IMG/VR virus record: IMGVR_UViG_2526164666_000046
Length of the DNA: 26,551 nt
Reading direction: 5' to 3' (one strand)
Source: a virus
Taxonomy: Duplodnaviria; Heunggongvirae; Uroviricota; Caudoviricetes
Positions 7,850 through 26,551 of the stretch are shown here, in pieces. The position numbers and the translations under genes are program-made. Below the pieces are notes generated by a model that had not been told where the DNA came from, searched no databases, and saw only the letters and a program-made list of their open reading frames with translations. Numbering within the stretch: the first letter of the stretch is position 1; every line of letters starts with the position of its first letter.

Positions 7850-8172
7850 ACTTTCAGGCCTCTCTCATGTAACCAGTGGGTTGCACGCAGCTTTGCGTTT
7901 TCCTCACCGGCAAGCAGTGAGCGGATAATCCCGACAGCCTCGCTGTCGTCGTCCTTCACCGCGGTATGAAGCGTTATCCCCCGGGCCACGCCACGCTTTA
8001 TCGTGATGACGCCTTTTTTCTCCAGTGCGCGAAGATGCTCCACCGCTGCATTCACTGAACGGTATCCCAGCATGGTTGCCACCTCCTGATTGGTTGGCGG
8101 GAAGCCTCGTTCTTTCTGGTAAGAAATCAGCATATCCAGCACCTGCTGCTGGCATTGAGTTAATGTCGTCAT
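7846..8172 (-). CDS. LexA-N-terminal-like winged-helix DNA-binding protein (108 aa)
   Basis: LTQCQQQVLDMLISYQKERGFPPTNQEVATMLGYRSVNAAVEHLRALEKKGVITI resembles the LexA DNA-binding domain; no S24 peptidase domain. Translationally coupled to its neighbours. Confidence 0.6.
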   Translation of the reverse strand: MTTLTQCQQQVLDMLISYQKERGFPPTNQEVATMLGYRSVNAAVEHLRALEKKGVITIKRGVARGITLHTAVKDDDSEAVGIIRSLLAGEENAKLRATHWLHERGLKV

Positions 8173-10131: not shown

Positions 10132-10364
10132 GCTGCACCTCCGAGATGCTTCATGTTTTTTCCGGAGCAAAAGGCTATAAGCGGCATACTGACGCGGTAA
10201 TTACGGCCCAGCGGTTCACAAATCACCTTCTGACATTCACGGTCCACCAGGCTAACACGTAGAACATGCCCTGCAGGCGTGGTGTACCACTGCCCAACTG
10301 TAGGAATTGATGTTTTTTTACGCTGAAATAAACGGTAAATGTTGAGGATCAACGGATTAAGCAT
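10128..10364 (-). CDS. Hypothetical small phage protein (78 aa)
   Basis: ORF translationally coupled between the 278-aa gene and the O-like gene; no recognisable motif. Confidence 0.3.
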   Translation of the reverse strand: MLNPLILNIYRLFQRKKTSIPTVGQWYTTPAGHVLRVSLVDRECQKVICEPLGRNYRVSMPLIAFCSGKNMKHLGGAA

Positions 10365-11193: not shown

Positions 11194-11753
11194 GCGTTAG
11201 TTTCTCCACAGACACAAAACGCCACGACGCCCGGAGCTGCACACTCGCGGGCGTCACTCTTTTCTGGAGCGCAAAAGATTTTGTAGACCAGTGCTGCATG
11301 CTCCTGGAGCTTCGAAATTGACAGATACAACTCATCATTAATTGCTGTCTGCTCGTGTGGCTCCACGACCCCATCTTCGATTGCCGAACGAATCTGCTTT
11401 GAGTAATTCCCGATCTGTTCGATGACTTCCAGCAGGCGCTGGTTTATATCGGCGTTCTCTACTTCCTCAATTTCAGGAAGCGATACGAACACCCCACCAG
11501 CAGACTGTGCGACAGCATCCGCAATGTAGTGAGTGCCAGCCGCGCGCTGTAAAACCATTGCCCATCCCAGCGGGAAAATCTGATCGCCATCGGCACGAAG
11601 GCGGTTAAATAATGCGTTCTCTGTTACATCCAGCCAGTCAGCTGCTTCAGCGTAACCACCCGGCAACGCTGCGATAGTTTTTCTGACAGCTTTCACGTAC
11701 CACTCAGGCTGTTTTTCTACTTTCCAGTGATACTTACCCACGGTTAGCCTCAT
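11190..11753 (-). CDS. Early regulatory protein, YdaT/CII-like by position (187 aa)
   Basis: Immediately downstream of the Cro-like gene as in Rac-type immunity regions; assignment is positional, not motif-based. Confidence 0.4.
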   Translation of the reverse strand: MRLTVGKYHWKVEKQPEWYVKAVRKTIAALPGGYAEAADWLDVTENALFNRLRADGDQIFPLGWAMVLQRAAGTHYIADAVAQSAGGVFVSLPEIEEVENADINQRLLEVIEQIGNYSKQIRSAIEDGVVEPHEQTAINDELYLSISKLQEHAALVYKIFCAPEKSDARECAAPGVVAFCVCGETNA

Positions 11754-11784
11754 CGTTCTGTGGTTAAAAATTGAAGGTGTTCTG

Positions 11785-11985
11785 TTAATCTTTCGGATAG
11801 ATATCCGGTCTTAAGTCAGATTTCGTAATTGCACCTGACGTGCATTGCTCAAGTTTTTTAGCCAGCACAAAACTGGCTTTTTTATAACCATTGAAAACCA
11901 GCCGTAAGTAGCCTGGTGTTGAGCCAACTTTTCCGGCCAACTCGCCCTGCTGTTCTTTGGTTAAAGAGTCCCAATACGCTTTCAT
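11785..11985 (-). CDS. Cro-like repressor (YdaS/DUF1019-type HTH)
   Basis: MKAYWDSLTKEQQGELAGKVGSTPGYLRLVFNGYKKASFVLAKKLEQCTSGAI; ATG at 11985 with GGAGGT 9 nt upstream; divergent from cI across an operator region. Confidence 0.6.
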   Translation of the reverse strand: MKAYWDSLTKEQQGELAGKVGSTPGYLRLVFNGYKKASFVLAKKLEQCTSGAITKSDLRPDIYPKD

Positions 11986-12075
11986 ACAATATGTACCTCC
12001 AATATACATATTACATGATTAATATGAACCTTCAAGATACTTGTACCTTATCGGTACAAAGGTTTTAATTTCTTT
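11986..12075. promoter_or_regulatory. OR-type divergent promoter/operator region between cro-like and cI
   Basis: Perfect inverted repeat TTGTACC-TTATC-GGTACAA (12041-12059) plus extra ATGTACC / GATAC half-sites; the same half-sites recur at the pL-like promoter. Confidence 0.55.
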
Positions 12076-12750
12076 ATGAAAACAGTCCATGACATCCGGC
12101 GGTCTAACGCCAGAAAACTGAGAGATGGTGTTGGCGGGAATTCTTCCTTTGCCACCATGATTGATCGCGAGCCAACCCAGACCAGCAGGTTTATGGGAGA
12201 TGGTGCTACTAAAAATATCGGTGACAGCATGGCACGGCACATCGAAAAATGTTTCGACCTGCCTGTCGGATGGCTTGATCAAGAACACCAGACCACGAAC
12301 ATCACAAAAAAACCTGATGTTTCAATCACTAACAAACAAATAACGTTAGTCCCTGTCATATCATGGGTACAGGCCGGAGCATGGAAAGAAGTTGGCTATT
12401 CTGAGGTTGATTTGAGCACAGCAGAAACTTATCCCTGCCCTGTACCCTGTGGCGAAATGACTTATATCTTGCGGGTGATTGGTGATTCAATGATTGATGA
12501 GTACCGCCCGGGAGACATGATTTTTGTTGATCCCGAAGTCCCTGCCTGCCACGGTGACGACGTTATTGCATTGATGCACGATACAGGCGAAACCACCTTC
12601 AAGCGATTGATAGAAGATGGAACACAGCGTTATCTCAAAGCATTAAACCCAAACTGGCCTGAGCCTTACATTAAGATTAACGGTAATTGCTCTATAATTG
12701 GTACAGTAATTTTCTCAGGAAAACCAAGAAGATACAAAATAAAGGCCTAA
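12076..12750 (+). CDS. CI-type prophage repressor (XRE HTH + S24 LexA-like autopeptidase)
   Basis: N-terminal HTH-like segment ending DLPVGWLD; C-terminal S24 domain with catalytic Ser (RVIGDSMIDEY) and Lys (TTFKRLI), implying RecA-stimulated self-cleavage. Confidence 0.85.
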   Translation: MKTVHDIRRSNARKLRDGVGGNSSFATMIDREPTQTSRFMGDGATKNIGDSMARHIEKCFDLPVGWLDQEHQTTNITKKPDVSITNKQITLVPVISWVQAGAWKEVGYSEVDLSTAETYPCPVPCGEMTYILRVIGDSMIDEYRPGDMIFVDPEVPACHGDDVIALMHDTGETTFKRLIEDGTQRYLKALNPNWPEPYIKINGNCSIIGTVIFSGKPRRYKIKA

Positions 12751-12762
12751 TCAATATTTATA

Positions 12763-12784
12763 ACCTGCTTCGGCAGGTTTTTTA
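12763..12784 (+). terminator. Intrinsic terminator after cI
   Basis: ACCTGC-TTCG-GCAGGT hairpin with a UUCG tetraloop followed by a T6 run, 13 nt after the cI stop. Confidence 0.6.
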
Positions 12785-12787
12785 TAC

Positions 12788-12820
12788 TTGACAATGTACC
12801 CTTGAGATACATAATGTATC
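12788..12820 (+). promoter_or_regulatory. pL-like early-left promoter with operator half-sites
   Basis: TTGACA (12788-12793), 16-nt spacer, CATAAT (12810-12815); overlapped by ATGTACC-CTTGA-GATACAT and GATACA-TAA-TGTATC inverted repeats. Confidence 0.45.
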
Positions 12821-13231
12821 TAAAAGAAACATGCCGCAGGCAAGATTAAACAAAATTTGGTTGTAACACGGCGTATGGCACATGCGTCGTTAGCGGTCTG
12901 GGGACGTTAAAGGGGACAATCCACTCCTTGCTCGGGCAAAAAAACCAGGTAGCCGGAATGTGCAAGTCAATGATGATGCTGATAAGACGCCTAACCAGCG
13001 CGGCGATCCGGTTTGACGCCTGGGAAGAGACCAGGGTGCAACGATGAGGGCATTTATGGAACCGCGACAAAGTGTGGTGCCGTAACTTGCTAAGTGCTCT
13101 CAGCGTTGTGGTAATCCGCGAAATGGCGCGGCGGTAAGTATGGCGGGGTTACTCTTTCCCCGTTGAGGACACCGGATTGTCAGGTTGACCATACGCCTGA
13201 GTGACAACCCCACCACAACAGCCACTGCTTT

Positions 13232-13278
13232 GGCGGTACCAGTTTGTACACTTGCTTCCGGCTGGTACCGCTCTTTTT
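13232..13278 (+). terminator. Hairpin + T-tract (terminator or structured RNA element) in the long pL leader
   Basis: GGTACCAG (13235-13242) / 19-nt loop / CTGGTACC (13262-13269) followed by GCTCTTTTT (13270-13278). Confidence 0.4.
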
Positions 13279-13416
13279 ACAAAACAGAGAAGAGCATCAC
13301 CGGACGACGGGCTCATAACCCAATCCAGCCGGGCGGCTGCCACCGCAGGTGTTCTTCTCTGTTTTGTGGAGAAACCAACCGACCTTGCAGGGTCGATATG
13401 ATGAGGAGCAGCAAAA

Positions 13417-13778
13417 TGGCTAGCGAACGCAGTACTGATGTGCAGGCATTTATCGGGGAGCTGGACGGCGGCGTATTTGAAACCAAAATCGGCGCAGTTC
13501 TCAGTGAAGTCGCTTCCGGTGTGATGAACACGAAAACCAAAGGTAAGGTCTCGCTCAACCTGGAAATCGAACCGTTTGATGAGAACCGTGTGAAAATCAA
13601 ACACAAACTCTCATATGTTCGCCCGACTAACCGCGGGAAAATTTCCGAAGAAGACACCACCGAAACGCCGATGTATGTCAATCGCGGTGGTCGACTGACT
13701 ATTCTGCAGGAAGACCAGGGACAATTACTGACTCTTGCCGGTGAACCTGACGGAAAACTCCGCGCAGCAGGTCATTAA
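13417..13778 (+). CDS. Hypothetical early-left protein (120 aa)
   Basis: ATG at 13417 preceded by GAGGAG 7 nt upstream (MASERSTDVQAFIGELDGG...); the track ORF's 5' extension to 13185 lacks an RBS and crosses the hairpin. Confidence 0.45.
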
Positions 13779-13843
13779 TATCGTTCTTAATTAACTGATT
13801 ATTTATCTCATCACTGAATATCTTTATATAGTGAGGACTTATT

Positions 13844-14668
13844 ATGTCTCAGAACTTAGACGCAACCGCAATTAATCAAATCCATGCCCTTATTTCTGCT
13901 CAGGGTGTTAATGAAATTATCAGTAATATTGGTGCCGATGCTGTGGCATTGCCTGAGAATTTCCGCATTCATGATCTGGAAAAATTTAATTTAAATCGCT
14001 TCCGTTTCCGTGGTGCGCTTTCCACTGCCAGCATCGATGACTTTACCCGTTATTCTAAAGATCTTGCAGATGAAGGCACCCGCTGCTTTATCGATGCCGA
14101 TAATATGCGAGCCGTCAGTGTGCTTAACCTGGGTACTATTGATGAACCAGGTCACGCAGATAACACCGCCACCCTCAAACTGAAAAAGACAGCACCGTTT
14201 TCTGCTCTGTTGTCTGTTAATGGCGAGCGTAACTCCCAGAAGTCACTGGCAGAATGGATTGAAGACTGGGCCGACTACCTTGTGGGCTTTGATGCTAATG
14301 GTGACACCATTCAGGCAACCAAAGCGGCTGCGGCAGTCCGTAAAATCACAATTGAAGCAAACCAGACCGCTGATTTTGAAGACAATGACTTCAGCGGCAA
14401 ACGCTCCCTGATGGAGTCTGTCGAAGCGAAGACCAAAGACATTATGCCAGTGGCATTTGAATTTAAATGCGTTCCGTTTGAAGGCCTGAAAGAACGTCCG
14501 TTTAAATTACGCCTCAGCATTATCACTGGCGATCGTCCTGTACTGGTTCTGCGCATTATTCAGCTGGAAGCGATGCAGGAAGAAATGGCTAACGAATTTC
14601 GTGATCTGCTTGTTGAGAAATTCAAAGACAGCAAAGTAGAAACCTTTATTGGTACTTTCACCGCCTGA
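13844..14668 (+). CDS. yfdQ: DUF2303-type prophage protein (YfdQ-like, 274 aa)
   Basis: Length (274 aa) and position directly upstream of a 178-aa HD-domain gene match my memory of the CPS-53 yfdQ-yfdR pair; symbol given on that basis, not on a computed alignment. Confidence 0.55.
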
Positions 14669-14680
14669 TTTCATTACTGC

Positions 14681-14702
14681 AAATGCCCCTGCGGGGGCAT
14701 TT
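14681..14702 (+). terminator. Hairpin after the YfdQ-like gene (weak terminator)
   Basis: AAATGCCCC-TGCG-GGGGCATTT perfect inverted repeat; weak T-tract after it. Confidence 0.35.
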
Positions 14703-14796
14703 ATGGAAACGTAATTAACTCAATAATCACCGGATGGTGAGAGCTTCCTTTTAGCAGAATTCAGCGCGGTGCAGCGCATATAAAGTGGAGAACGAA

Positions 14797-15333
14797 ATGT
14801 CATTTATTAAAACTTTTTCCGGGAAGCATTTTTATTATGACAAGATAAATAAAGACGACATCGTGATTAACGATATCGCAGTTTCCCTTTCAAATATCTG
14901 TCGCTTTGCAGGACATCTTTCACACTTCTACAGTGTCGCCCAGCATGCGGTGCTTTGCAGCCAGCTGGTGCCGCAGGAATTTGCTTTTGAAGCGTTAATG
15001 CATGATGCAACAGAAGCATATTGCCAGGACATCCCCGCGCCACTGAAACGACTTCTTCCTGACTATAAACGGATGGAAGAAAAAATAGACGCCGTAATCC
15101 GTGAGAAATACGGGTTACCTCCTGTTATGAGCACGCCAGTGAAATATGCCGATCTCATCATGCTGGCAACCGAACGCCGCGATCTCGGACTTGATGATGG
15201 CTCTTTCTGGCCTGTATTGGAAGGTATCCCGGCAACAGAGATGTTCAAAGTGATTCCACTGGCACCGGGCCATGCCTACGGGATGTTTATGGAACGCTTC
15301 AACGAGTTATCGGAATTACGCAAATGTGCATAA
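14797..15333 (+). CDS. yfdR: HD-domain phosphohydrolase (YfdR-like 5'-deoxynucleotidase, 178 aa)
   Basis: HD motif context ...SVAQHAVLCSQL... and downstream ...EALMHDATEAYCQDIP; start at MSFIKTF (14797). Confidence 0.65.
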   Translation: MSFIKTFSGKHFYYDKINKDDIVINDIAVSLSNICRFAGHLSHFYSVAQHAVLCSQLVPQEFAFEALMHDATEAYCQDIPAPLKRLLPDYKRMEEKIDAVIREKYGLPPVMSTPVKYADLIMLATERRDLGLDDGSFWPVLEGIPATEMFKVIPLAPGHAYGMFMERFNELSELRKCA

Positions 15334-16202
15334 CTCATGTAGTTAGTTTTTCTGGCGGGAGAACATCTGCATATCTTGTTCACCTGATGGAAGAACAAAG
15401 AAAGGCTGGCAATAACGTCTGCTACATCTTTATGGATACCGGTTGCGAACATCCGCTGACATACCGCTTTATTCGGGAGGTTTTGAAGTTCTGGGGCATA
15501 CCGCTAACTGTGTTGCAGGTCGATATAAATCCAGAGCTTGGGCAGCCAAATGGTTATACGGAATGGGAACCAAAGGATATTCAGACGCGAATGCCGGTGC
15601 TTAAACCGTTTATGGACATGGTTAAAAAGTACGGTACGCCATACATCGGCGGCGCATTCTGTACTGACAGGCTAAAACTCACCCCTTTCACGAAATATTG
15701 CGATGACCATTTTGGGCGAGGGAATTACATCACATGGCTCGGTATTCGTGCGGACGAACCCCGTAGGCTGAAACCGAAACCTGGCGTCCGGTATCTTGCC
15801 GAGCTGTCAGATTTTGATAAGTCGGATGTTATCCGGTGGTGGCAAAAACAACCTTTTGATTTGCAAATCCCGGAGCACCTCGGGAACTGTGTTTTTTGCA
15901 TCAAAAAGTCAACGCAAAAGCTGGGGCTTGCATGTAAAGACGAACCTGGTCTGATGCGGGTTTTTAATGAACTGGTTACAGGCAAACACGTCAGGGATGG
16001 TCATCGCAGAACAGGTAAAGACGTTATGTACCGTGGTCACCTGACGCTTGACGGGATTGCCAGAATGTATGCCGACAGCGACTACAGAAGTTTGTATCAG
16101 GCGATGGTGCTGGCCAAGCGGTTTGATACTGGTTCGTGTTCCGAATCATGTGAAATCTGGGGTGACCAATTGGAGTTGAAATTCGAAGAGGTCGTGGCAT
16201 GA
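15324..16202 (+). CDS. PAPS-reductase-like PP-loop protein (phage-type, 292 aa)
   Basis: N-terminal PP-loop VVSFSGGRTSAYLV (SGGxxS) and length typical of the phosphoadenosine-phosphosulfate reductase superfamily; overlaps the HD gene by 10 nt. Confidence 0.7.
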   Translation: MCITHVVSFSGGRTSAYLVHLMEEQRKAGNNVCYIFMDTGCEHPLTYRFIREVLKFWGIPLTVLQVDINPELGQPNGYTEWEPKDIQTRMPVLKPFMDMVKKYGTPYIGGAFCTDRLKLTPFTKYCDDHFGRGNYITWLGIRADEPRRLKPKPGVRYLAELSDFDKSDVIRWWQKQPFDLQIPEHLGNCVFCIKKSTQKLGLACKDEPGLMRVFNELVTGKHVRDGHRRTGKDVMYRGHLTLDGIARMYADSDYRSLYQAMVLAKRFDTGSCSESCEIWGDQLELKFEEVVA

Positions 16203-16402
16203 CAATCGTAAAAACCCATACCGGTACCGTGATCACCAAAGATGGCCCGCAGGTAAAAAAATTGCACCAAACAGAGCGGATGTGGGTCGTTGGCAAAAAC
16301 GAGTTTTACCACAAAGAAACTGGACGCCGCCATTTTGCAGAAAATACGCGCCGCCGACTGCTGTTAGACACCATCAAGCCTATCGAGGTGAAGCATGTTT
16401 AA
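16199..16402 (+). CDS. Hypothetical small protein (67 aa)
   Basis: ATGA-coupled to the upstream gene; no motif recognised. Confidence 0.4.
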   Translation: MTIVKTHTGTVITKDGPQVKKLHQTERMWVVGKNEFYHKETGRRHFAENTRRRLLLDTIKPIEVKHV

Positions 16403-16634
16403 ACAGAACGAAAAAGCTATCGCTCAAATTGCTGATTATATCCCGCGTGCGTGCCGGGGTATGCAGTTGCAGGAAGCCAAAGCGCGCCTGGAGAAAAAAA
16501 TTGCGCTCTATATCGATGACGGCTGTGATGCTGCCGTTCTTAACGCGGCGTTCGCGCCAGCTCTTAACAGCCATACGCGGGAGGCTTTTTTTTCGCGCAT
16601 CGCAGCGCAGATCCGTAAAGGAGGCAACCAGTGA
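16395..16634 (+). CDS. Hypothetical small protein (79 aa)
   Basis: Overlapping-coupled ORF in the early-left operon. Confidence 0.4.
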   Translation: MFKQNEKAIAQIADYIPRACRGMQLQEAKARLEKKIALYIDDGCDAAVLNAAFAPALNSHTREAFFSRIAAQIRKGGNQ

Positions 16635-16960
16635 GCAAGATTGACTATCAGGCACTGCGTGAGGCGGCAGAAGCAATAAAAGTCGTGGCAACGCCGCAAA
16701 AATTGCTTGCGTTTCGTATGAAAGTCACACCGCAGGTTGTGCTGGTGCTGCTGGATGAACTAGAAGCTAAAAACAAACGCATTACAGAACTGGAAGCGAG
16801 GGAAGTTCAATTACCGACTCGCTACGACCTTCGATATGGGCACCCAATAAATGCTGATAAGCGACATGTCATGATACCTAAAGAAAATGGCAGCTGGCTT
16901 TGCCTGATTGACTTAGAACACGCACTACGCGTCGCTGGCATTCGCATCAAAGGAGAGTGA
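16631..16960 (+). CDS. Hypothetical protein (109 aa)
   Basis: Coupled ORF; charged helical N-terminus. Confidence 0.4.
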   Translation: MSKIDYQALREAAEAIKVVATPQKLLAFRMKVTPQVVLVLLDELEAKNKRITELEAREVQLPTRYDLRYGHPINADKRHVMIPKENGSWLCLIDLEHALRVAGIRIKGE

Positions 16961-16961
16961 G

Positions 16962-17825
16962 ATGACCACTTTCACCGATAAGAAACTGATTAAAGAAATC
17001 AAAGAGCGCATAAGCAGCCTGGACGTGCGAGACAATATTGAGCGTCGGGCTTATGAAATTGCATTGACTGCATTGACAGCGGAGCCATTTGGCATCATCG
17101 ATACTTCGGGGATTGCGCTCATTAACCATGGTAGTGATGCGTATATTTGGCCCGTCAATTCGATGGAGCCGGGAGATGTACCACTATATATCGGCCTGCC
17201 ACGAATTGCACCGGCATCAATACCAGAGGCCATGACAGAGGAAAAAGCGTACTCAAATGTACAAACGAGCTGGCAGGATGCGAAATATTACGCTACTGGC
17301 TGGAATGCCTGCCGCGCCGCCATGCTTCAGGCCAGAAACTTTCGGGAAAATAAGAATTCGTCAACCAATAATTTTCGGGAAATCGCGGAAACGTCAACCA
17401 ACTATCCGGTAATTCCTAGTGAGGTGTTGTCCGCAATCCAGAAGGTTGCCAAGATTCGTGCCGATTTCGATGATTTTGACGGTGACAGGCGAGGTATCGG
17501 TGATTATCTGGATGAGGCTGAGCAAGAGCTTATCGTTACCATTAACAAATATGCCAGTCAGTTGGCAGCAGAACCTATAGCGCCTAATGACGTTCGAGAG
17601 CAGACAGCCATTCCGCAAGTTCCGGTAACTCCGGATGGTTGGATAAGCTGTAGTGAGCTAATGCCGAACGACGCACAGTGGTGCGTAGTGAACACAGAAT
17701 ACGGGTATTACGTGCAATGCTGGTCTGAAGGTCAAGGGTGGCTTGGTGATGATATCAGCATCCCTGAATGCGATGTAACCCACTGGATGCCTCTACCAGA
17801 ACCGCCGCAGGAGGTGAGTCAATGA
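16962..17825 (+). CDS. DUF551-type phage protein (287 aa)
   Basis: C-terminal W..CWSEGQGW...THWMPLPEPP motif characteristic of DUF551 as I remember it. Confidence 0.55.
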   Translation: MTTFTDKKLIKEIKERISSLDVRDNIERRAYEIALTALTAEPFGIIDTSGIALINHGSDAYIWPVNSMEPGDVPLYIGLPRIAPASIPEAMTEEKAYSNVQTSWQDAKYYATGWNACRAAMLQARNFRENKNSSTNNFREIAETSTNYPVIPSEVLSAIQKVAKIRADFDDFDGDRRGIGDYLDEAEQELIVTINKYASQLAAEPIAPNDVREQTAIPQVPVTPDGWISCSELMPNDAQWCVVNTEYGYYVQCWSEGQGWLGDDISIPECDVTHWMPLPEPPQEVSQ

Positions 17826-17905
17826 GTTGGCCTGAAGCATTTGCAATTGTAGGTGTTGCAATATCGATTGCGCTGATTATTTTTTCGATTTGCCGCTGGG
17901 GATAA
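17822..17905 (+). CDS. Possible small hydrophobic peptide (27 aa, MSWPEAFAIVGVAISIALIIFSICRWG)
   Basis: ATG overlaps the upstream stop (ATGA); single membrane helix; below the ORF-track cutoff. Speculative. Confidence 0.3.
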   Translation: MSWPEAFAIVGVAISIALIIFSICRWG

Positions 17906-17909
17906 TCTC

Positions 17910-18152
17910 ATGTTCGCACTTATTCAACGCGGGCAAATATACACGGACAGGGCCGGATACCCTGTGGTGATTACTCGCTGTACGGACCGCTCTGTGTTCT
18001 TTCGACGTATGGACGGACACTCCGGGCGGGTATGCATTGGTGAGTTCAACTGCCTGTTCGAACATATTGACCACCAGCAGTATTGCAAAATCCTGGCGGA
18101 CACTGAGCAGGAAAAGCACCTGAAAAAATTGCGCGCAATGCAACGGAGGTGA
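17910..18152 (+). CDS. Hypothetical protein (80 aa)
   Basis: ORF in operon position; no motif recognised. Confidence 0.35.
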   Translation: MFALIQRGQIYTDRAGYPVVITRCTDRSVFFRRMDGHSGRVCIGEFNCLFEHIDHQQYCKILADTEQEKHLKKLRAMQRR

Positions 18153-18155
18153 TAC

Positions 18156-18302
18156 ATGCATACGGTTTTTGAGTTATGGGTTCGCAAGACATTCGGCAAT
18201 CGCTATGACCTGACGCGAGATGTTGACGGTTTCTACTGTCGTGAAATTGTGAAACGAATGTTTGAAGTGTGGTGTCACTGTCGTGGGCTGAATGTTGTGT
18301 GA
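18156..18302 (+). CDS. Hypothetical small protein (48 aa, MHTVFELWVRKTFGNRYDLTRDVDGFYCREIV...)
   Basis: Strong SD GGAGGT 5 nt upstream of the ATG at 18156; below the ORF-track cutoff. Confidence 0.35.
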   Translation: MHTVFELWVRKTFGNRYDLTRDVDGFYCREIVKRMFEVWCHCRGLNVV

Positions 18303-18310
18303 GGTGAACT

Positions 18311-18520
18311 GTGGGGCTGGATTGCGTACCTATATCAACCTACTGCCGCAACGCGGGAGAAACGGTTGATGCCGTTAACAAACGGATACAAAGAGGAATA
18401 TGGAAAGAAGGGGTACATGTATTAAAAGTCGACGGGGTTAAAGAGCGTTGGGTCGACTTAATAGAGGTTTCAAAATGGGCAAGAAAGAACAAGGATTATT
18501 ATCTCTGCCAAGAGGAGTAA
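18311..18520 (+). CDS. Excisionase-like protein (Xis)
   Basis: Small winged-helix-like ORF (…VDAVNKRIQRGIWKEGVHVLKVDGVKERWVDLIEVSKW…) immediately upstream of and overlapping the integrase gene; GTG start with GAGGTG RBS. Confidence 0.5.
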   Translation: MGLDCVPISTYCRNAGETVDAVNKRIQRGIWKEGVHVLKVDGVKERWVDLIEVSKWARKNKDYYLCQEE

Positions 18521-19650
18521 CTATTCGTAAGCATAAAACTGCTTCAACACTAGTTATCACTTTCACATATAAAGGGGTTCTTTGCAGGGAGCCCCTATCT
18601 CGGCTTGAGGCAAATACACGTGGTATAAAATATGCTGAGCGCCTGCTAGGGGAGATACAAAATCAGATCGCCAGCGGAACGTTTGAATATGCGAAATATT
18701 TCCCCAATTCCAAAAAACTGGAGTTATTCGGTGTAGTAAAGAAAACCAAAAATATTAAGTCCTATCTTGATGAATACCTGAAAATTTGCATAAACCGTAA
18801 TCTGTCGCCGTCAACCATTGGCGGTTACGAAAAATGTCTATCAGCACTATCAGAACTACATAAACTACATGTAACAGAATTGACGCCTGCGATACTAAAA
18901 AATTGGATAGCCAGCCGAAAAACTAAGCTGAAAACAATCAGGAATAACCTGTCATTTCTGCGCAGCGCCATTGATGAAGCTGTTACGGATGGCCTGCTGA
19001 CCATTAACCCGGTAACCCTCGTCAGCGCCAGCCGGTACCACGTGATCGACAGTAGCCCGAGCGCCGACGATTACGAGGTTGACCCGTTCACGCCAGCGGA
19101 GACCCTTGCCATTTACCAGAGCTGCAGGTACAGGGAATGGGAAAACCTGTTCCGCTTTGCTTTCAATACAGGTCTGCGGAGCTCAGAACTGTGCGCGCTG
19201 CGCTGGGCTGATCTCGACACCATCGCGAACACAGCCCACGTTCAGGCGGCCAGTGTCGTAGGGGTACTTAAAGGCACCAAGACAAAAGCCGGTACCCGTA
19301 AGGTGGAGCTGAACAGTGAGGCGCTGGCAGCCCTGCAGGCGCAGAAGCAATACACCTTTATGAAAAGTGAGTTCATATTCAGCGATCCGAAAACGGGAGA
19401 ACCCTGGACGAACGCCGACGCTATCCGTAAAAAAGCATGGGTGCCGACCCTGAAAAAAGCTGGTGTGCGCTACCGTAACCCGTACCAGACGCGCCACACA
19501 TTCGCCACCAGACACATTAGCCAGGGTGTAAACCTTTTCTGGCTTGCCGGGCAGATGGGGCATAAGGGGCCGGAAATGCTGTTCCGCAATTACGGTAAAT
19601 ACCTGGCTGAATACGATGGTAAAACGTCTATAAATGTTGTGTCAAGCTGA
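18475..19650 (+). CDS. Lambda-type tyrosine integrase with N-terminal arm-binding domain
   Basis: Catalytic-domain pattern ...LRSSELCALRWADLD..., ...RHTFATRHISQGVNLFWLAGQMGHKGPEMLFRNYGKYL (R..H..R..Y region); terminal position in the early-left operon after xis. Confidence 0.85.
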   Translation: MGKKEQGLLSLPRGVTIRKHKTASTLVITFTYKGVLCREPLSRLEANTRGIKYAERLLGEIQNQIASGTFEYAKYFPNSKKLELFGVVKKTKNIKSYLDEYLKICINRNLSPSTIGGYEKCLSALSELHKLHVTELTPAILKNWIASRKTKLKTIRNNLSFLRSAIDEAVTDGLLTINPVTLVSASRYHVIDSSPSADDYEVDPFTPAETLAIYQSCRYREWENLFRFAFNTGLRSSELCALRWADLDTIANTAHVQAASVVGVLKGTKTKAGTRKVELNSEALAALQAQKQYTFMKSEFIFSDPKTGEPWTNADAIRKKAWVPTLKKAGVRYRNPYQTRHTFATRHISQGVNLFWLAGQMGHKGPEMLFRNYGKYLAEYDGKTSINVVSS

Positions 19651-20009
19651 GTACATAGGCTTAAGGCTGATGAAAATTAAGAATGAGTCTACCATTGCTT
19701 TTTGTGAAATGAGCTATCATCTATGTTATTGATAGTTTCCATAGTTCATTTAGGTAATTGTAAATTTAATTAAAATCAATAACTTACATCATAGCAAGAA
19801 ATGGAGTGCAAATATATTTCTTGACTTCACGTAAGTTACTTTATTGCAATAAATTTTCACTAGGACAGTGCAAGGACACTGATAGTACTTGATGAGTCCC
19901 AGTACAAACTGTTATCCTGTGCTCCACAAATTCTAAAACTTTTATGTTTTTTTACTTTTCAAGAGCTTAACGTAGGTATCGGCGAAGCACCACAACTGGA
20001 GTGAACACT

Positions 20010-20048
20010 ATGAAAAAGACACTGACCGTAGGTTTCGGTGAAGGTTAA
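20010..20048 (+). other. 12-codon leader-type ORF (MKKTLTVGFGEG) with strong RBS
   Basis: GGAG at 19998-20001, 8-nt spacer, ATG 20010; followed 45 nt later by a hairpin + U-tract. Confidence 0.3.
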
Positions 20049-20093
20049 CTACAACCTAAAATTTTAAAACAAACCTCCATTAGCACAATAAGG

Positions 20094-20117
20094 CCTCCCA
20101 TGCGGAGGTCTTTTGTT
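20094..20117 (+). terminator. Hairpin + U-rich tail between the leader ORF and the membrane-protein gene (attenuator-like)
   Basis: CCTCC-CATGC-GGAGG followed by TCTTTTGTT; 16 nt upstream of the ATG at 20133. Confidence 0.35.
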
Positions 20118-20132
20118 ATAGGAATCAATAAG

Positions 20133-21041
20133 ATGGCGAGAACATTAGTCAACGTCAGCGCTACAATTTTTGCTCTAATGATGATTGTCAGAGCACTTTT
20201 TACTTATATCTACCCTGGAAAACTACCATTTAGCATCGCCATCATTGATTGGCTGATCGTCATTGCTGGTTCTGGTGCAGCAATATCTTCTATCTTCTGC
20301 TTCATCAAAAAACGCTATCCAGACACTGCAGAATTTCTTCCTATGTTCAGCACTGTTTGTTATGTGATTATCCTTATTGGATATGCAATTTTAAGGTACA
20401 CACCGGCCTATCAAACATCGCTTTCGATCATGGTTACAGGAATGCTCGTTGGAATGGGATGGTGGATACAATGCATAACGTCCGCTGCTAACACGCGCAG
20501 GTCCCACACGCTGAACATGATCATTAACACCCGAACAAGCCCGGAGTACCAAAAACAGCTTCGGAACAGCACCAAATTCTATCGGGGCATGCGTTATGTA
20601 CCACAAGAACTATCAGAGTGGCGCTGCAACCCAGACAAAGAAGAATACAAGAATATGAAGGTCCCCGATGAGTACAGGGATGCCATCAATGGCCTTTTAT
20701 ATATTCTTAATTATTTCGAGTTTCTTGCGCAGGGTATCAAGTTCAAGGATTTGGATGACGAATTACTGAGGGAGTGCTTCTCCAGCTTCTTACGCGGGAT
20801 AGAACGTCGTGGCTTCCACATGATCTTAGAGTCTCAGAAACAGGACCCTGCAGCCTTTGAAGGAATAATCTACCTTTCAAAAAAATGGAACGGAACATCG
20901 TTTGTTGAAACCCACCGTTCCAACCCTAATACGGTTGAGCTCGGGGTTCCATATCCTTCAAACGATATGGTTGAAAAAATGGTTCAAGGTCAGCCGTTAA
21001 TAGATAGCGACGCAGGGCCGGAACTTCAAGTGGCCACTTAA
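20133..21041 (+). CDS. Membrane protein: four N-terminal TM helices + ~170-aa cytoplasmic C-terminal domain (303 aa), unknown function
   Basis: Start taken at MARTLVNVSATIF (20133), not the track's 20100; four hydrophobic segments, then a soluble domain with no recognisable motif; AT-rich island between two integrases. Confidence 0.5.
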   Translation: MARTLVNVSATIFALMMIVRALFTYIYPGKLPFSIAIIDWLIVIAGSGAAISSIFCFIKKRYPDTAEFLPMFSTVCYVIILIGYAILRYTPAYQTSLSIMVTGMLVGMGWWIQCITSAANTRRSHTLNMIINTRTSPEYQKQLRNSTKFYRGMRYVPQELSEWRCNPDKEEYKNMKVPDEYRDAINGLLYILNYFEFLAQGIKFKDLDDELLRECFSSFLRGIERRGFHMILESQKQDPAAFEGIIYLSKKWNGTSFVETHRSNPNTVELGVPYPSNDMVEKMVQGQPLIDSDAGPELQVAT

Positions 21042-21143
21042 TCTCGTTGTATGGACCAAGAGAGGACCAGAAAATGCACTCAAAATGCACTTGAGGCATT
21101 TTAAAACAGAGAATGCATTGTTATTCAATGGGTTAAGCATTGC

Positions 21144-21175
21144 TCGGGCACGGGTTCAACTCCCGCCAGCTCCAC
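21144..21175 (+). other. tmRNA (ssrA) 3'-end-like fragment, probable att core of ssrA-targeting integrative elements
   Basis: TCGGGCACGGGTTCAACTCCCGCCAGCTCCAC matches my memory of the E. coli ssrA 3' end (...TCGGACGCGGGTTCAACTCCCGCCAGCTCCACCA) with a few mismatches; followed by T5 and a hairpin + T6 at about 21210-21246; no upstream tmRNA body. Confidence 0.55.
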
Positions 21176-21339
21176 TTTTTAGTTGTTTGAAGTTCAATGA
21201 AGTCTACTAAGCCCACACAGCACAAGCTCTGCGGGCTTTTTTACGTCTATTGTCGTCCAGTGAGAATTGCTGAGAACTACGAGTTATGGCACCCTGAATG
21301 GGACCCACTAAGAAGGGTCCAAAAACCGAGGGTCCCAAA

Positions 21340-22560
21340 ATGGCAAAAATCGCTAAGAAGCTCACTGACACTGAAATCAAAAGCACCAAGCCAGCCGATA
21401 AAGAAATCAACTTGTTTGACGGTGATGGTCTGATTCTACGAATCGCTCCTTTGGCGAAAGGAGGCAAGAAAAATTGGTATTTCAGGTATGCAGTACCCGT
21501 GAGCAAGAAAAGAACCAAAATGAGCCTTGGGACATATCCTCACCTTACCCTTGCAAGAGCCAGAGCCTTACGTGATGAATATCTCTCCTTTCTGGCAAAT
21601 GGTGTTGATCCCCAAATCCATAACAACGATAAGGCGAAGGCATTAAAGAGTGCTACTGAGCACACTCTCCAAGCCGTAGCGCGGAAATGGTTAGATGAGA
21701 AGGTAAAGACATCAGGTATCTCACAAGACCATGCAGCAGACATCTGGCGCAGCTTAGAGAGAAATGTCTTTCCCGGTCTGGGTAATGTCCCTATCCGACC
21801 TAAGCTCTTAAAACAACACCTTGATCCTATTGAGCAACGAGGCGTATTGGAAACTCTACGCCGTATCATTTCACGTCTGAATGAAATCTTCCGGTGGGCA
21901 GCTACTGAAGAACTTATTGAGTTCAACCCGGCTGACAACCTTGGTCAAAGATTCAGTAAACCAAAAAAGCAAAATATGCCTGCCCTTCCCCCAAGCGAAT
22001 TGCCAAGGTTTATGGAATCTTTGACGAATGCGTCAATCCGGTTGGAAACACGTATGCTAATTGAATGGCAATTGTTGACATGGGTTCGTCCGGGTGAAGC
22101 CGTTCGCGCAAGGTGGTCTGATATTGATACAACCAACAGCATTTGGAACATTCCTGCTGATTTCATGAAAATGAAAAAGCTTCACAAAGTTCCTTTGAGT
22201 AAAGAAGCTTTGCGCATCCTTGAATTAATGAAATCAATAAGTGGGCATAGAGAATGGGTTTTCCCCAGCATAAAAGCGCCTCTTAATCATATGCATGAAC
22301 AAACAGCCAACGCAGCTATCATCCGAATGGGGTTCGGAGGCGAGCTTGTAGCTCACGGTATGCGTTCTATTGCACGAACAGCGGCAGAGGAGTCTGGTAA
22401 ATTCAGAGCTGAAGTTCTTGAGGCAGCGCTTGCCCACTCGAAAAAAGATGAAATTATCGCAGCATACAATCGTGCAGAATATCTGATAGAGCGACAGAGT
22501 TTGATGCAATGGTGGAGTGATTACGTTCAAGCTCAAAGATCAAATGCTCTGGTAGCCTAA
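21340..22560 (+). CDS. P4-type tyrosine integrase (IntA/CP4-57-like)
   Basis: MAKIAKKLTDTEIKSTKPADKEINLFDGDGL... closely parallels the remembered IntA N-terminus; C-terminal HGMRSIARTAA...ALAHSKKDEIIAAYNRAEYL catalytic region; RBS GAGGG 8 nt upstream of the ATG at 21340. Confidence 0.85.
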   Translation: MAKIAKKLTDTEIKSTKPADKEINLFDGDGLILRIAPLAKGGKKNWYFRYAVPVSKKRTKMSLGTYPHLTLARARALRDEYLSFLANGVDPQIHNNDKAKALKSATEHTLQAVARKWLDEKVKTSGISQDHAADIWRSLERNVFPGLGNVPIRPKLLKQHLDPIEQRGVLETLRRIISRLNEIFRWAATEELIEFNPADNLGQRFSKPKKQNMPALPPSELPRFMESLTNASIRLETRMLIEWQLLTWVRPGEAVRARWSDIDTTNSIWNIPADFMKMKKLHKVPLSKEALRILELMKSISGHREWVFPSIKAPLNHMHEQTANAAIIRMGFGGELVAHGMRSIARTAAEESGKFRAEVLEAALAHSKKDEIIAAYNRAEYLIERQSLMQWWSDYVQAQRSNALVA

Positions 22561-23233
22561 GTATCAGAATAGCTAATATAATCCTGAAGGTAAAGAAAAT
22601 GGAAACCCTATTCAAAGTTTTTGAAAAATTTAGTTCCAGACCACTTTTTTTATTTTTTTCGGACTCTCACTTTGTGAATTTTTTCAGAAACAATCTGTTC
22701 TGATGAATCCATCAGCAGATAACATCGCGAAATTATTCGCAGCCATGATATTAGTTGTTTTTTTACTTGGGGATTTGAATGGCTAATCTTCAAGTTCAAT
22801 GTAAACCTTGAACCTCATGATCAAGGCGATATTGGACCAACAATTGGAACGGCTACTTTAGCTGTATACTTAGTTTATGCCTTTCACTTTCTCAGTGAAA
22901 ATCCTGAAGCATTAAATTTAAAGTTATTAACTAACTCTGGCTTTATATACAGCACAACTCTATTATTATTCTCATTAGAATGCATGAAGCTTAGAAGACT
23001 TAAACAAAAATAAACAACATCATTGTGATGATAAATATAAAATAGGCATGGCGAAAAAAAATCACCACGCCTAAAATATAATAATTATGGTAGCATCATT
23101 GATACATAATCCACACCAATCCTTGAGCTATACTGAGACGCTATAGCCTGATATCTTTCTGCATAACCAGTTCTCAGTTGAGATTTAAGTTTGAGTCGGA
23201 CAGGAACATTTTGCACGTTGCCATCCATATTAC

Positions 23234-24832
23234 TTAAAAACACGGCAGAAATAATATTTTTTCTTCGCCATCAACTGTTGTTCCATGATTCAACACCACC
23301 ATATAATCAACAACAGGAAGCGTTTTATCCCCTTCGAAAATAGAGAGATATTTTCTTTGATTTTTATGCATTACATATATATATTTCGAATGTTCAGCAA
23401 ATGGCAATGCTTTACTCTGACTGGCGTTAAAAAGCTCCAGAACTTTAATGAGCCTGTGCGGACTTAATCTTACATGGTGAGGGTCGTTACCCTGAGTAGG
23501 AACCAAATCACATGCCGCAGATACACATAAATACCATTTGTTCGACTCTGTATCAAAGAAAATAGTGCCAGTAGAAATATGACCATCTTCAAAATTCTTT
23601 GAAGACAAATTCATATTTAAAGCATGATACATTTCGTGATAAGTATCATTATTTGATGGCAGATCCATTTTTGAAGAGCAATATTGGAGCAATGCAGCAA
23701 CTCCGCTGTTAGCGTATTCATTTGAATAGCTATCAAAAACACTTTTGATAAATTCATCCAGCGTATTATTATTTTTAAGTCTTTGATAAAGCTCTTCTGA
23801 TAAATTACCAAATACAAAGTCAATATTTCTACATCTAATATCAGGCGAGTCTGATTTTAATATCTCATTTAACCACGCAGCTTGACCGTAATGATCGTTA
23901 GCCAAATGATTTACAAAAGATAAAGCCTCAGCTTCGATTGCATTCTGAATTTCAGATTTTATTAACTGATAATAAGATGGTTTCCATTCAATGAGAGAAT
24001 CATTGAGAGTTTGCCAAATCCTATCTCCATCGTTTTCATGATCATCTTGAACCTTATGAAATAGGGAGACAAAGATATTACCACATTGAATCCATTTTAC
24101 TCCGCTTTCATCACCCCGAATGACATTGCCAGATGTGTTGCTAGAAATAATTGCATTTCTAGACACAGCATATTCTGCAATCATTTTTGCAATGAAGTTT
24201 TTATCCTTTTGATCCTCCAACACAGCATCATCATGTATTAATCTTTTAATTCTTCTACAAGGCTTACTGTCTTTAATATAGGCTATTATTTCATCTCTTG
24301 TGAGAGCTTTATTACCATTATCATTTAAGTTCGGTAATACAACGTCTTCCCAATAACTTTGGACATCTTCATTATCGTAGTCAATGATCAAGCTGTTGAT
24401 ATCCAGAGCACCTTTGAGAGTCGATGATATCTGCATCCAAACCGTTTCTAAATTCTCTCTAGTATATATTACAATCATATTTAAATGATCGGAGTCTTTC
24501 AAATCTTGTAATAGTTTAAGTGTTTTATCAGGTGCATTATTATCAAGATGATAATCTACAATAATAAGATCTGATTTTCTAATCCGATCCACATCGAAAT
24601 TAACAGAACCATTGTCAACATCACAAATCATATTTTTAGATTGAAAAAAGCTCTCAAGAGTAGCGGCTCGTTTAGATGAGTCAATTTTGTTGTAGTCTAA
24701 ATCAACTTCGTTATTCAACGCCCTGATTGATTCAGAATACGTCAGAAAATCGTCATCAATCATGACAACGGAACGAATTGCATTTTCGCAGAAAGTTTTC
24801 TGGACAAGAGAATTATAATTTGCCACTGTCAT
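23234..24832 (-). CDS. Receiver (REC)-domain protein fused to a ~400-aa uncharacterised C-terminal domain (532 aa); candidate effector of a two-component-type module
   Basis: N-terminal REC-like pattern: SVVMIDDD (acidic pocket), DLIIVDYHL (phospho-acceptor Asp position), NMIVIYT (conserved Thr position). ATG at 24832 with GGAG 7 nt upstream, 1 nt after the kinase stop. Very AT-rich. C-terminal domain unrecognised. Confidence 0.6.
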   Translation of the reverse strand: MTVANYNSLVQKTFCENAIRSVVMIDDDFLTYSESIRALNNEVDLDYNKIDSSKRAATLESFFQSKNMICDVDNGSVNFDVDRIRKSDLIIVDYHLDNNAPDKTLKLLQDLKDSDHLNMIVIYTRENLETVWMQISSTLKGALDINSLIIDYDNEDVQSYWEDVVLPNLNDNGNKALTRDEIIAYIKDSKPCRRIKRLIHDDAVLEDQKDKNFIAKMIAEYAVSRNAIISSNTSGNVIRGDESGVKWIQCGNIFVSLFHKVQDDHENDGDRIWQTLNDSLIEWKPSYYQLIKSEIQNAIEAEALSFVNHLANDHYGQAAWLNEILKSDSPDIRCRNIDFVFGNLSEELYQRLKNNNTLDEFIKSVFDSYSNEYANSGVAALLQYCSSKMDLPSNNDTYHEMYHALNMNLSSKNFEDGHISTGTIFFDTESNKWYLCVSAACDLVPTQGNDPHHVRLSPHRLIKVLELFNASQSKALPFAEHSKYIYVMHKNQRKYLSIFEGDKTLPVVDYMVVLNHGTTVDGEEKILFLPCF

Positions 24833-24833
24833 A

Positions 24834-26551
24834 TTAGAACTCCACTCCATTGAACTGGATCACAAAATTAGCGCCATCTTTTATTAAATAGTTATCGCCT
24901 TCATCAGGTTCTGAATACCATATTTTATGATGTGCAACAGCAAGGTTTTCTCGACATAGATACAGACCTACCCCATGTCCATTTGCTCTTTTGCTATAAA
25001 ATAGTTCAAATAGTCGCGGGATATCATCGGTATCAATTGCCGGACCAGAATTTGCTATGATAACCAAAGAATTCACAAAACCAATCTTTATGAGCCTATT
25101 ATTTGACAGACTGACCCAATACATTGCATTGTTGATAATATTAGTAAAAACAGGATAGATCCTTAATGGTATATCTGTTATTGCGATTTGCTTAAACTCT
25201 TCACTAAATTCAATAGTTATTCGTTGCCGTTCGAAACGCTCCCCAAAGAACTTCAGGACATAATCCATGATATTTTTTCCAGTTATTCTCTGCCTGGATT
25301 GATAACCTGATATTTTCAAAGGTGATAAGAAACGTATTTGTTGAGTAAGCGATCTGTGAGCATTTAACGCCAATGAAAAACCAGGGTGTTCTTTTACAGA
25401 AGTAGGAAGAGAGTTTAGTCCTCTGGTTACCATAGAATCCATTTCTTCAAGTTCATGAGATATTATCTCAACACTAATACCTAACTGTGCAAGCGCGTTT
25501 AAACTTTTAGCTTTTTCTTCAAAATATGAGCGTTCTTCTTCAGATAATGAGAATGCTGAATCTAAGTTTATACCTTCAAATAATCTATCGAGACCTTTTA
25601 TTATTGATTGATATTTGAAAGTTAGGGTATCAACTGACTCAACATATAAACTATCGAGCAAATTAAACACATTTTCAATTTGTGAATCATTATCTATTGA
25701 ATCAACAACTGATATAGTTTTAGCATAATAATCACTTCGATCAACCTTTATTTCATCGGCCCATTTTTTTAAAAGAGAATGTATCTTCTCCTCTATCGTG
25801 TTATTAAACTTAGTTAGTTTAGAATTAATAATACCTTGATTTTTTCAAGGTGATTTTTCGCTGACAATGAAGGCTCAAGTTTATTTAATTCAGAATCAAG
25901 TTTATTAATTGCTAACTTCATTTGTAGAATATACGCAGAGAACTCATTAAATTTATCTCTGTAGTCTCTATATTTCTCTTCATACATTCCAAGTTTTGGA
26001 GGTTTGATAGGCGTTTTAATTTCACTGCGCAACGCATCTAAGTTTGTAAGATCACTGTCTATAATTTTAAGATAGTTTAAATCTAACGAACCATCAGTTT
26101 TATCAAGCTTAGTTTTCAGCCTTTTAACAGCCTCCAAGGAAGCATCAAGAACTGGTGTCTGATTCTTCAAAGCTTCTGAAAAACTTTTTTGTGTTGATTT
26201 TCGAGCTTGTTGTTGAGCAGATTTTCTTAACTCTTTTTCACGCTTAACTTGTTCTAAAAGCTCTTTACGGTCATCAGAACGTGAACCAAAAAATCTATCA
26301 GCAAGTTCAGTTAACAAATTAGATATAATAGTTTTCAGTTCTCTTGCAGCCTGGTTTCTTATGAATCCCTCTCTCCCCGACTTATCTTTCAGCTCTTTAT
26401 TACTGGATTGAGTAATTCCAATATAACCAAAAATCCTTCTATTAGACCAATAATATCGCCCTGCATTCCATGAACGTCTTTCTTCTATCTGGAAGAAATC
26501 ATTATCTACTCGACCATAAGGTAATACTCTCAAGCTATCCCTAAAAATCAT
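24834..26551 (-). CDS. Sensor histidine kinase (HisKA H-box + HATPase_c), 5'-partial at the window edge, reading frame interrupted at an A6 run
   Basis: Downstream part (frame open 25844..24834, no start codon) carries H-box IISHELEEM, N-box FTNIINNAMYW, G1 IANSGPAIDTDD, G2 GHGVGLYL. Upstream part (26551..25814, continues beyond window) ends 30 nt after the frame switch. One extra A in the minus-strand A6 run (plus 25840-25845) would fuse both into one ORF of at least 580 aa. Confidence 0.6.

Follow-up and report, generated by a model that had tools for sequence, protein, structure and literature searches.

A displaced ssrA 3' end between a lambdoid prophage and a P4-type-integrase island points to serial integration at the tmRNA gene of Escherichia coli

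We analysed a window of 26,551 nucleotides (nt) from a tailed-phage sequence (Caudoviricetes; IMG/VR record IMGVR_UViG_2526164666_000046), in which a short copy of the 3' end of ssrA, the gene for transfer-messenger RNA (tmRNA), lies between a lambdoid prophage and the integrase gene of a P4-type island. This fragment is very probably (about 0.93 by our estimate) the original end of ssrA, displaced to the junction of two elements that integrated serially into the same core. Judged by its flanks, it serves the lambdoid prophage as integrase-proximal attL and was once the attL core of the island. The initial annotation had called it either attR-like or a displaced core; the second description stands, and the first does not, since in phage nomenclature the site is the integrase-proximal attL. 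Feature coordinates are collected in Table 1.

Positions 21151-21175 reproduce the 3' end of ssrA over 25 nt (CGGGTTCAACTCCCGCCAGCTCCAC), without a mismatch to the gene in the closest complete genome. The 25-mer occurs once in the window, where shuffled sequences are expected to hold 0.00 copies, and its context reads TTGCTCGGGCA-CGGGTTCAACTCCCGCCAGCTCCAC-TTTTTAGTTG. The near-match to ssrA had been put at about 32 nt, and over 21144-21175 the identity is indeed 30 of 32. The seven extra bases are TCGGGCA in the window and TCGGACG in ssrA, and 21144-21150 are best read as a partial similarity of phage origin outside the ssrA core. The tmRNA body is missing, as had been annotated: neither ARAGORN nor Rfam at its gathering threshold detected a tmRNA gene or body in the window, which rules out an intact gene there. 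When Rfam was run permissively, in E-value mode, 21050-21177 aligned only to positions 221-374 of the tmRNA model, cut at the 5' end, with 23.2 bits, below the gathering score.

Downstream of the core, the annotated hairpin and T-run are real, with arms at 21209-21221 and 21226-21238 and a T-run at 21237-21242. Homologues of the arm that carries them follow ssrA across the Enterobacterales, and the hairpin is the island-supplied terminator of ssrA, now displaced. The integrase ATG at 21340 lies 164 nt past the core, one less than first counted, and the P4-type architecture of the protein was borne out by Pfam. The same stretch gave a sub-threshold Rfam match to IsrM (RF02763) at 21168-21242, whose 51.5 bits compare with a gathering score of 376. 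Of the 329-nt model only positions 1-19 and 273-329 align, and the 253 nt between them are absent. An IsrM gene at this place was rejected, because the score is far below threshold and only the model ends align. IsrM maps between STM2762 and STM2763 in LT2 (PMC2330248). Since what it shares with the window is the island-supplied ssrA terminator, it may have originated at an equivalent junction of ssrA fragment and integrase.

Two complete genomes place the fragment in its chromosomal setting. Positions 10783-26551 are 99.85% identical to E. coli O26:H11 strain 11368, the left end of the window is 99.5% identical to strain 2013C-4225, and both strains are collinear with the window. In both, the gene order is smpB, intact ssrA, lambdoid prophage, fragment, P4-type int, cargo, IS3, truncated ygaQ and glaH-lhgO-gabDTP; the prophage itself runs dinI pseudogene, espK, espN, nleL, tail, head, lysis, Q, replication, cI, xis, int and DUF4760. 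The 25-nt core forms a direct repeat, with the far copy, at the end of intact ssrA, outside the window and separated from the fragment by 54.2 kb in 11368 and about 55.6 kb in 2013C-4225. Intact ssrA in these closest genomes is thus 54-56 kb upstream of the fragment, and does not immediately flank it.

Genomes that lack one or the other element define the att boundaries. In the phage-free strain 94-3024, nothing separates intact ssrA from the island, which has the same integrase protein (WP_001341819.1) and cargo and likewise ends in IS3 and truncated ygaQ. In the island-free genome HCP5S3_I4, the same phage int, DUF4760 gene, arm and core are followed by the native sequence CCAATCATGATTGG (CCAATCATG) and ypjA. 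Apart from 3 missing nt, the four junctions align as conservative site-specific recombination predicts: left of the core stands either the ssrA body or the phage P arm, and right of it the phage P' arm, the island arm or native sequence. Because the island is distal to the phage and the phage abuts intact ssrA, the island came first and the phage second. At the level of sequence comparison, these genomes establish the relative order of the two insertions, a comparator for each single-element state, the anatomy of the array and its two integrase families. The two integrases share 26% identity over 155 amino acids (aa) and carry different arm-binding Pfam domains, so the annotation was right to treat them as distinct enzymes.

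The window-type junction is present in 81 of 5,426 complete E. coli genomes, while the ssrA end followed by a P4-type island without the phage occurs in about 1,150 others, for example 94-3024 and the B strains. Independent tandem arrays are found in EH031, where a different phage adjoins the same island, and in O157:H- strain 493/89, where a related phage adjoins a related island with other cargo.

Tandem and nested insertion had both been envisaged. The comparisons argue for a tandem array and not a nested one. In a nested arrangement the phage would have entered a secondary attB inside the island, as a prophage within a prophage, instead of ssrA. Such integration is documented in Shiga toxin-producing E. 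coli (STEC; PMC8112680), and the core that was used is also the left end of the island. The left prophage junction is nevertheless a genuine ssrA body, the right one is phage arm plus core, no island sequence lies left of the phage, and the same phage sits at ssrA in island-free HCP5S3_I4; we consider nesting very improbable. That the fragment is an ordinary single-element attL, the end of an intact ssrA before its own P4-type island as in the roughly 1,150 genomes above, is refuted by the window itself, in which the sequence upstream of 21144 is phage arm and DUF4760 gene instead of ssrA body and no tmRNA is detected, in line with the 54-56 kb to intact ssrA in the collinear genomes.

Several points weigh against serial integration as we describe it. 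Intact ssrA and the far prophage end lie outside the window and are taken from relatives with 99.5-99.85% identity wherever they share sequence with the window, and in its left third the prophage of the window is a mosaic when compared with 11368. A free-phage attP of this exact phage was not found: phi467, the sole full-length match in the phage collection, was discarded as attP evidence, as its record was cut from a prophage and contains the island integrase. The junction is imperfectly conservative, and its 3 missing nt call for an extra event. Protein binding at every site proposed below is a candidate assignment only.

Under serial integration, the P4-type-integrase island would first have integrated at the ssrA 3' end, supplying a replacement downstream sequence and terminator, and IS3 would later have truncated it, leaving no right-hand att site. 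A lambdoid phage whose attP held the last ~28 nt of ssrA between AAAATGCAC arms would then have recombined with the ssrA end through its phiES15-like Int with an Arm-DNA-bind_2 domain. Intact ssrA would have come to end in phage-supplied sequence with a phage terminator, 54-56 kb upstream, and the integrase-proximal phage arm would have been joined to the old core and island at 21151-21175. The source strain of the window would be expected to carry intact ssrA about 55 kb upstream with the 3' flank CACTTTTGATAGG...AAAATGCACGTAAAATGCAC.

Table 1. Features of the window around the displaced ssrA 3' end.
Feature	Position	Strand	Basis
Excisionase (xis), overlapping the int start	18311..18520	+	88% aa identity to annotated phiES15 excisionase
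Lambdoid tyrosine integrase, transcribed toward the fragment	18475..19650	+	Pfam Arm-DNA-bind_2 and Phage_integrase; 91% aa identity to phiES15 Int
DUF4760 gene between int and the att site	20100..21041	+	Pfam DUF4760
Candidate P-arm sites of the lambdoid Int (AAAATGCAC x2, CAGAGAATGCA)	21071..21117	+	Pair at other prophage end; related pairs elsewhere
Displaced ssrA 3' end	21144..21175 (exact core 21151-21175)	+	25-mer identity, 30/32 extended match, junction alignments, Rfam
3-nt deletion (CAC/CCA)	21175..21176	+	CTCCAC/TTTTTAG against expected CTCCACCACTTTTTAG
Island left arm (supplied downstream of ssrA)	21176..21339	+	Identical directly 3' of intact ssrA in 94-3024
Intrinsic-terminator hairpin and T-run	21209..21242	+	Kept in island variants; homologous to the 3' end of the Rfam IsrM model
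Four GGNNCCC motifs: GGCACCC 21288-94, GGGACCC 21300-06, GGGTCC 21315-20, GGGTCCC 21330-36	21288..21336	+	Invariant motifs, varying spacers
P4-type tyrosine integrase, 406 aa	21340..22560	+	Pfam Arm-DNA-bind_3, Phage_int_M, Phage_integrase
Island cargo: small hypothetical gene (+); receiver-domain protein and ATP-binding protein (-), the last running off the window	22608..26551		11368 and 94-3024 annotation

The lambdoid xis-int module lies upstream of the fragment at 18311-19650, as had been noted, and so does a DUF4760 gene at 20100-21041. By its similarity to phiES15, the lambdoid Int appears to be an ssrA-targeting enzyme. Phage phiES15 is UV-induced, has a circular record and carries an annotated 26-nt attP equal to the ssrA 3' end (GGGTTCAACTCCCGCCAGCTCCACCA); support for the attP comes only through this relative, with its 91% identical Int and its attP matching the ssrA end. 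In the PhiR12 phages, which share the int, the end that was retrieved held no ssrA core. The product of xis had no match to a Pfam domain. The DUF4760 gene travels with the phage in HCP5S3_I4 and is absent from EH031, where another phage occupies the same site; it seems to be phage cargo (a moron), and PADLOC returned no match for its protein.

Candidate arm-type sites flank the core on both sides. The motif AAAATGCAC occurs four times only in the 74 kb examined, as two pairs with 11-bp spacing. One pair (21071-21079 and 21082-21090) is 61-80 nt upstream of the fragment core, and the other, at the far prophage end, is 90-109 nt downstream of intact ssrA; an attP reconstructed by joining the two ends at the core has one pair on each side. 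A degenerate third copy, CAGAGAATGCA, lies at 21107-21117. At the same position, the phiES15 attP carries AATATGCAC-GC-AAAGTGCAC and the phage of O157:H- 493/89 carries AATATGCAC-GT-AAAATGCAC, while in EH031, whose phage has a different Int, no such pair is present there. Presence in both arms and specificity to an integrase lineage are what we looked for in arm-type sites, and the motif has both; we infer that the pairs are arm-type sites of the lambdoid Int. A phage-supplied terminator-like hairpin 128 nt past intact ssrA replaces the island-supplied terminator. Within the P arm, position 21103 is a single-nucleotide polymorphism (SNP), A in the window and T in 11368, with HCP5S3_I4 agreeing with 11368; the best-matching complete genomes all carry one mismatch to the window across the interval around it.

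The left part of the prophage is less uniform. Positions 1-5650, which hold the lysis and late-regulatory part, are unalignable to 11368 or only 88% identical to it and match 2013C-4225, and positions 5650-10295 are 97.9% identical to 11368. The mosaic lysis/late-regulatory region indicates, on these alignments, recombinational replacement inside the same ssrA prophage. Three Rfam-threshold matches lie on the minus strand of the prophage, STnc100 at 2837-3009, C4 antisense RNA at 10645-10732 and isrK at 10757-10833; the last two lie side by side in the early/regulatory region.

The P4-type integrase at the other side of the fragment is transcribed away from the ssrA end and has an open reading frame (ORF). 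Its Arm-DNA-bind_3, central and Phage_integrase domains match with E-values of 2.1e-22, 1.3e-18 and 1.7e-19, all above the curated cut-offs, and its catalytic domain covers profile positions 3-169 of 172. An ssrA end lies about 175-205 nt upstream of the int ATG in 94-3024, in H19, in the B strains and in most of 78 Enterobacterales upstream regions; within those 78, all Int proteins at least 79% identical to the window's that have a full upstream flank show the ssrA end there. Relative to 11368, the window's int has a 9-nt in-frame deletion at 21792 (ATCAATGAG, 3 aa). This allele is real, being present in 18 complete genomes, including O103 RM8385 and 2013C-4225. A 103-aa minus-strand ORF at 21207-21518 that overlaps the int start is assumed to be spurious.

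No second core copy (attR) is present downstream in 11368. The island ends with IS3 and a 5'-truncated ygaQ in 11368, 94-3024 and H19, and its right end has been lost to IS1 in the B strains. Because it has no second core copy and ends at an insertion sequence (IS) element, the island is an immobile remnant and not a complete, mobile P4-like satellite or integrative island. The right end of the O157:H- 493/89 island (GACGCCAGCCCAATCATG) was tried as the island attR and rejected, as that island is composite, with other recombinases and no GGGTCC motif. In its own right, this end (reverse complement, about 24900-24920 of the 493/89 locus) holds a shortened ssrA remnant, GACGCCAGCCCAATCATG (CGCCAGC----CCA), another displaced copy with a deletion.

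The minus-strand cargo, at about 23096-26551, comprises a 582-aa "response regulator receiver domain" protein and a 572-aa ATP-binding protein. PADLOC returned no match for the island cargo. Given that the site is a known defence-island hotspot, the two could be an uncharacterised defence pair. Compared with near-identical complete genomes, the window has single-base gaps at 12777, 22644, 22757, 23256 and 25839, all a missing T, and five more within 1-2024. Four of the T deletions (22644-25839) disrupt cargo ORFs, and the single-T gaps could be homopolymer assembly errors or real decay.

The 3 nt missing at the junction fall in the CCA end of ssrA. The expected junction, CTCCACCACTTTTTAG, is present in 94-3024 and in the 493/89 tandem array, whereas the window reads CTCCAC directly followed by TTTTTAG. 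Essentially all of the roughly 80 genomes with the window junction match it at 99% or more, which excludes a 3-nt gap, so the deletion is common to them, and EH031, with its different phage, has the same deleted fragment. We further searched with a chimeric query joining the ssrA body, the deleted end and the island. Eleven complete genomes, including O26:H11 H19 and O111:H11 8D, matched at 100% identity and full coverage, in one place each. The two that were inspected, H19 and 8D, have no phage, and their island proteins are the O26 alleles. Their ssrA reads ...GCCAGCTCCACTTTTTAG, in which only the first C of CCA is templated, and ARAGORN predicts a tmRNA of 361 nt in H19 and 363 nt in 11368. 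The RefSeq annotation of H19 still gives a 363-nt ssrA (6249-6611 of the H19 locus), where the gene end is GCTCCAC followed by TTTTTAG and the last two CCA nucleotides are absent. There are thus natural strains in which the one tmRNA gene encodes just the first C of the CCA end. In the genomes examined, the full templated CCA goes with prophage occupancy.

We weighed two accounts of how the deletion arose. In one, to which we give a little less than an even chance, it was a neutral change that befell the displaced copy once the phage had integrated; cured lysogens would account for the 11 phage-free genomes, and EH031 would have been re-lysogenised. A displaced copy mutates free of selection, the island and its flanks are identical between phage-free and phage-bearing genomes, and excision of CP4-57 carries deltaT357 from its displaced copy into ssrA (PMC10107115). 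This account needs more events than the other, and an undeleted fragment is seen in roughly 0 of 80 phage-bearing genomes of the lineage. The other account, for which the odds likewise fall just below one in two, holds that the deletion arose in the functional ssrA of a phage-free ancestor, into which phages integrated at least twice, each restoring the full CCA. It is favoured by the deletion in the only ssrA of the 11 genomes including H19 and 8D, by the two unrelated phages (window type and EH031 type) that adjoin the same deleted fragment, and by the presence of the deletion in all lysogens, but it requires a mutation to have become fixed in a functional gene. Local SNPs do not order phage gain and deletion, with 1 variable site in the 6.5 kb up to and including ssrA. 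The island stretch is identical in the lineage's complete genomes (11368, EH031, H19 and O111:H11 8D).

Either way, we infer that prophage excision and integration move the deletion into or out of functional ssrA. An excision scar reading CTCCACTTTTTAG would mean that the deletion had been transferred into ssrA, and one reading CTCCACCACTTTT would place the crossover 3' of the deletion. The acceptor stem and discriminator are intact in the deleted ssrA, unlike in deltaU357. With RNase BN/Z and the CCA-adding enzyme, the deleted allele may still be matured and functional. A speculative extension, which we regard as rather unlikely, is that in O26/CC29 the ssrA-targeting prophage would act as a switch for the tmRNA 3' end, which would run ...GCUCCAC followed by UUUUU in phage-free cells (11 genomes) and have a normal, phage-supplied CCA in lysogens. 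If this were true, integration would repair tmRNA maturation and excision would degrade it, giving lysogens an advantage or curing a penalty through ribosome rescue, much like the CP4-57 deltaU357 "rescue switch" but in a milder form and at the CCA end.

Just upstream of the P4-type int, the initial annotation had placed GGGTCC(C)AAAA repeats at 21318-21339. The repeats exist, a few bases from there: direct copies of AGGGTCC(C)AAAA lie at 21314-21325 and 21329-21340 and belong to a set of four GGNNCCC motifs that begins at 21288. The last motif, at 21330-36, overlaps the GAGGG ribosome-binding site of the integrase, and GGG[AT]CCC occurs nowhere else in the window. The suggestion that they bind an integrase or regulator is plausible and gains comparative support, although an RNA hairpin is still an alternative. 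In E. coli variants 80-89% identical and in Enterobacterales loci of the window's Int subfamily (about 85-99%), the four motifs are near-invariant and their spacers vary. In other ssrA-linked Int subfamilies the architecture is kept, with an inverted copy followed by direct copies and A-runs just before the ATG, and the word is changed: TCCCTC/GAGGGAG/GAGGGAG, AGTACC/GGCTACT/GGATACT, or TTGGTATACG twice with CGTATACCAA. Each ssrA-linked P4-type Int subfamily has its own inverted-plus-direct triplet in the 110 nt upstream of int, and the arm domains diverge in parallel; such triplets have the look of autoregulatory arm-type sites. Where the word is changed, Int identity is 66-72% in the arm-binding domain (residues 1-95) and 82-93% elsewhere; where it is the same, the arm domain is 87-99% identical. 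Subfamily L058 departs from this pattern, keeping a similar motif despite 68% arm-domain identity.

The far arm for the P4-type Int is deleted in the window-type island, and CP4-57 of K-12 was used as a substitute comparison. There, a stretch of 23.6 kb has five copies of the equivalent motif, [AG]GG[AC]CCAA, of which four lie within the two att arms. On this pattern we lean towards the GGNNCCC set being a P' arm-type site cluster of the P4-type Int, probably also autoregulatory.

A doubtful alternative is that the repeats act mainly in RNA, with two nested helices in the 5' untranslated region (ACCCU:AGGGU and GGACCC:GGGUCC) that hide the GAGGG ribosome-binding site and limit translation. The leader does fold well, with a minimum free energy of -24.7 kcal/mol (z = -3.05), matched by 1 of 200 shuffles, and the inverted-repeat layout recurs with different sequence in other Int subfamilies (TCCCTC/GAGGGA, TTTTGCACC/GGTGCAAAA), which looks compensatory. 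P4 int is reportedly under post-transcriptional regulation (Piazzolla 2006). A hairpin, however, requires two copies, not two direct ones plus inverted ones, and the subfamily at 50% identity has a separate AGGA ribosome-binding site downstream of the repeats. It is specifically in the arm-binding domain that Int divergence follows the motif. Because the motif also stands in the attR arm of CP4-57, where there is no int mRNA, an mRNA-structure model does not predict it. Arm-site and RNA roles are compatible, and the set could serve both at once.

The arrangement as a whole belongs to a known class. The tmRNA locus is a hotspot for prophages of several groups, P4-like satellites and integrative and mobilizable elements, and several integrase subfamilies have evolved to use it; it is also E. 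coli defence-island hotspot #9 of Hochhauser et al. 2023 (PMC10121019). Small deletions are common in displaced ssrA ends, and a table of them has been published (PMC10107115). Work by Williams (2002; 2003, "Traffic at the tmRNA gene") is covered here as represented in PMC10107115 and PMC10121019. Because this literature describes the hotspot and its several integrase subfamilies, the phenomenon is already known. The window shares with known tandem islands and prophages at the gene the use of the ssrA 3' end by different Int subfamilies, the replacement 3' ends, and the distal displacement of older elements with the fragment, and differs from them in nothing of principle. We did not find described the pairing of a phage with a phiES15-like Int and an IS3-truncated P4-type island, or this particular 3-nt deletion of the CCA end.

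K-12 CP4-57 (IntA) is a close parallel to the island, with the same chromosomal position (ssrA ... ypjA/ygaQ/glaH), a P4-type int about 165-200 nt after ssrA, a homologous terminator hairpin 3' of ssrA, repeated motifs just upstream of int, and a displaced copy with a small deletion that enters ssrA on excision (PMC10107115). That excision yields ssrA deltaT357 and inactivates tmRNA (PMC10107115). The Int proteins are only about 50% identical, however, the cargo differs, and the island in the window lacks a right end; its deletion takes the templated CA of CCA, whereas that of CP4-57 takes U357 in the acceptor stem. On the phage side, Cronobacter phage phiES15 (NC_018454) shares Int (91%), Xis (88%), the attP core and a tandem arm motif about 70-90 nt upstream of the core. 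At the DNA level the match is confined to the int region, the genes between int and attP differ, and the host genus is another. KplE1 (Panis et al. 2010, PMC2951348), in which intS adjoins attL at the 3' end of argW, a tRNA-type gene, offers a model for the GGNNCCC set: its arm-type P' sites overlap the int promoter and leader and mediate negative autoregulation (PMC2951348). By analogy, the same may hold for the set upstream of the P4-type int, although KplE1 differs in integrase family and motif.

The fragment is the kind of scar that serial integration leaves at the tmRNA gene, in textbook form. For O26-type STEC it gives the exact boundary between an effector prophage (complete relatives carry espK, espN and nleL) and the remnant of an older island, and so aids prophage annotation and typing. 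Two findings are possibly worth experiments: the deletion at the CCA end, which goes together with prophage occupancy, and the repeat triplets, specific to each lineage, at the start codons of P4-type int genes.

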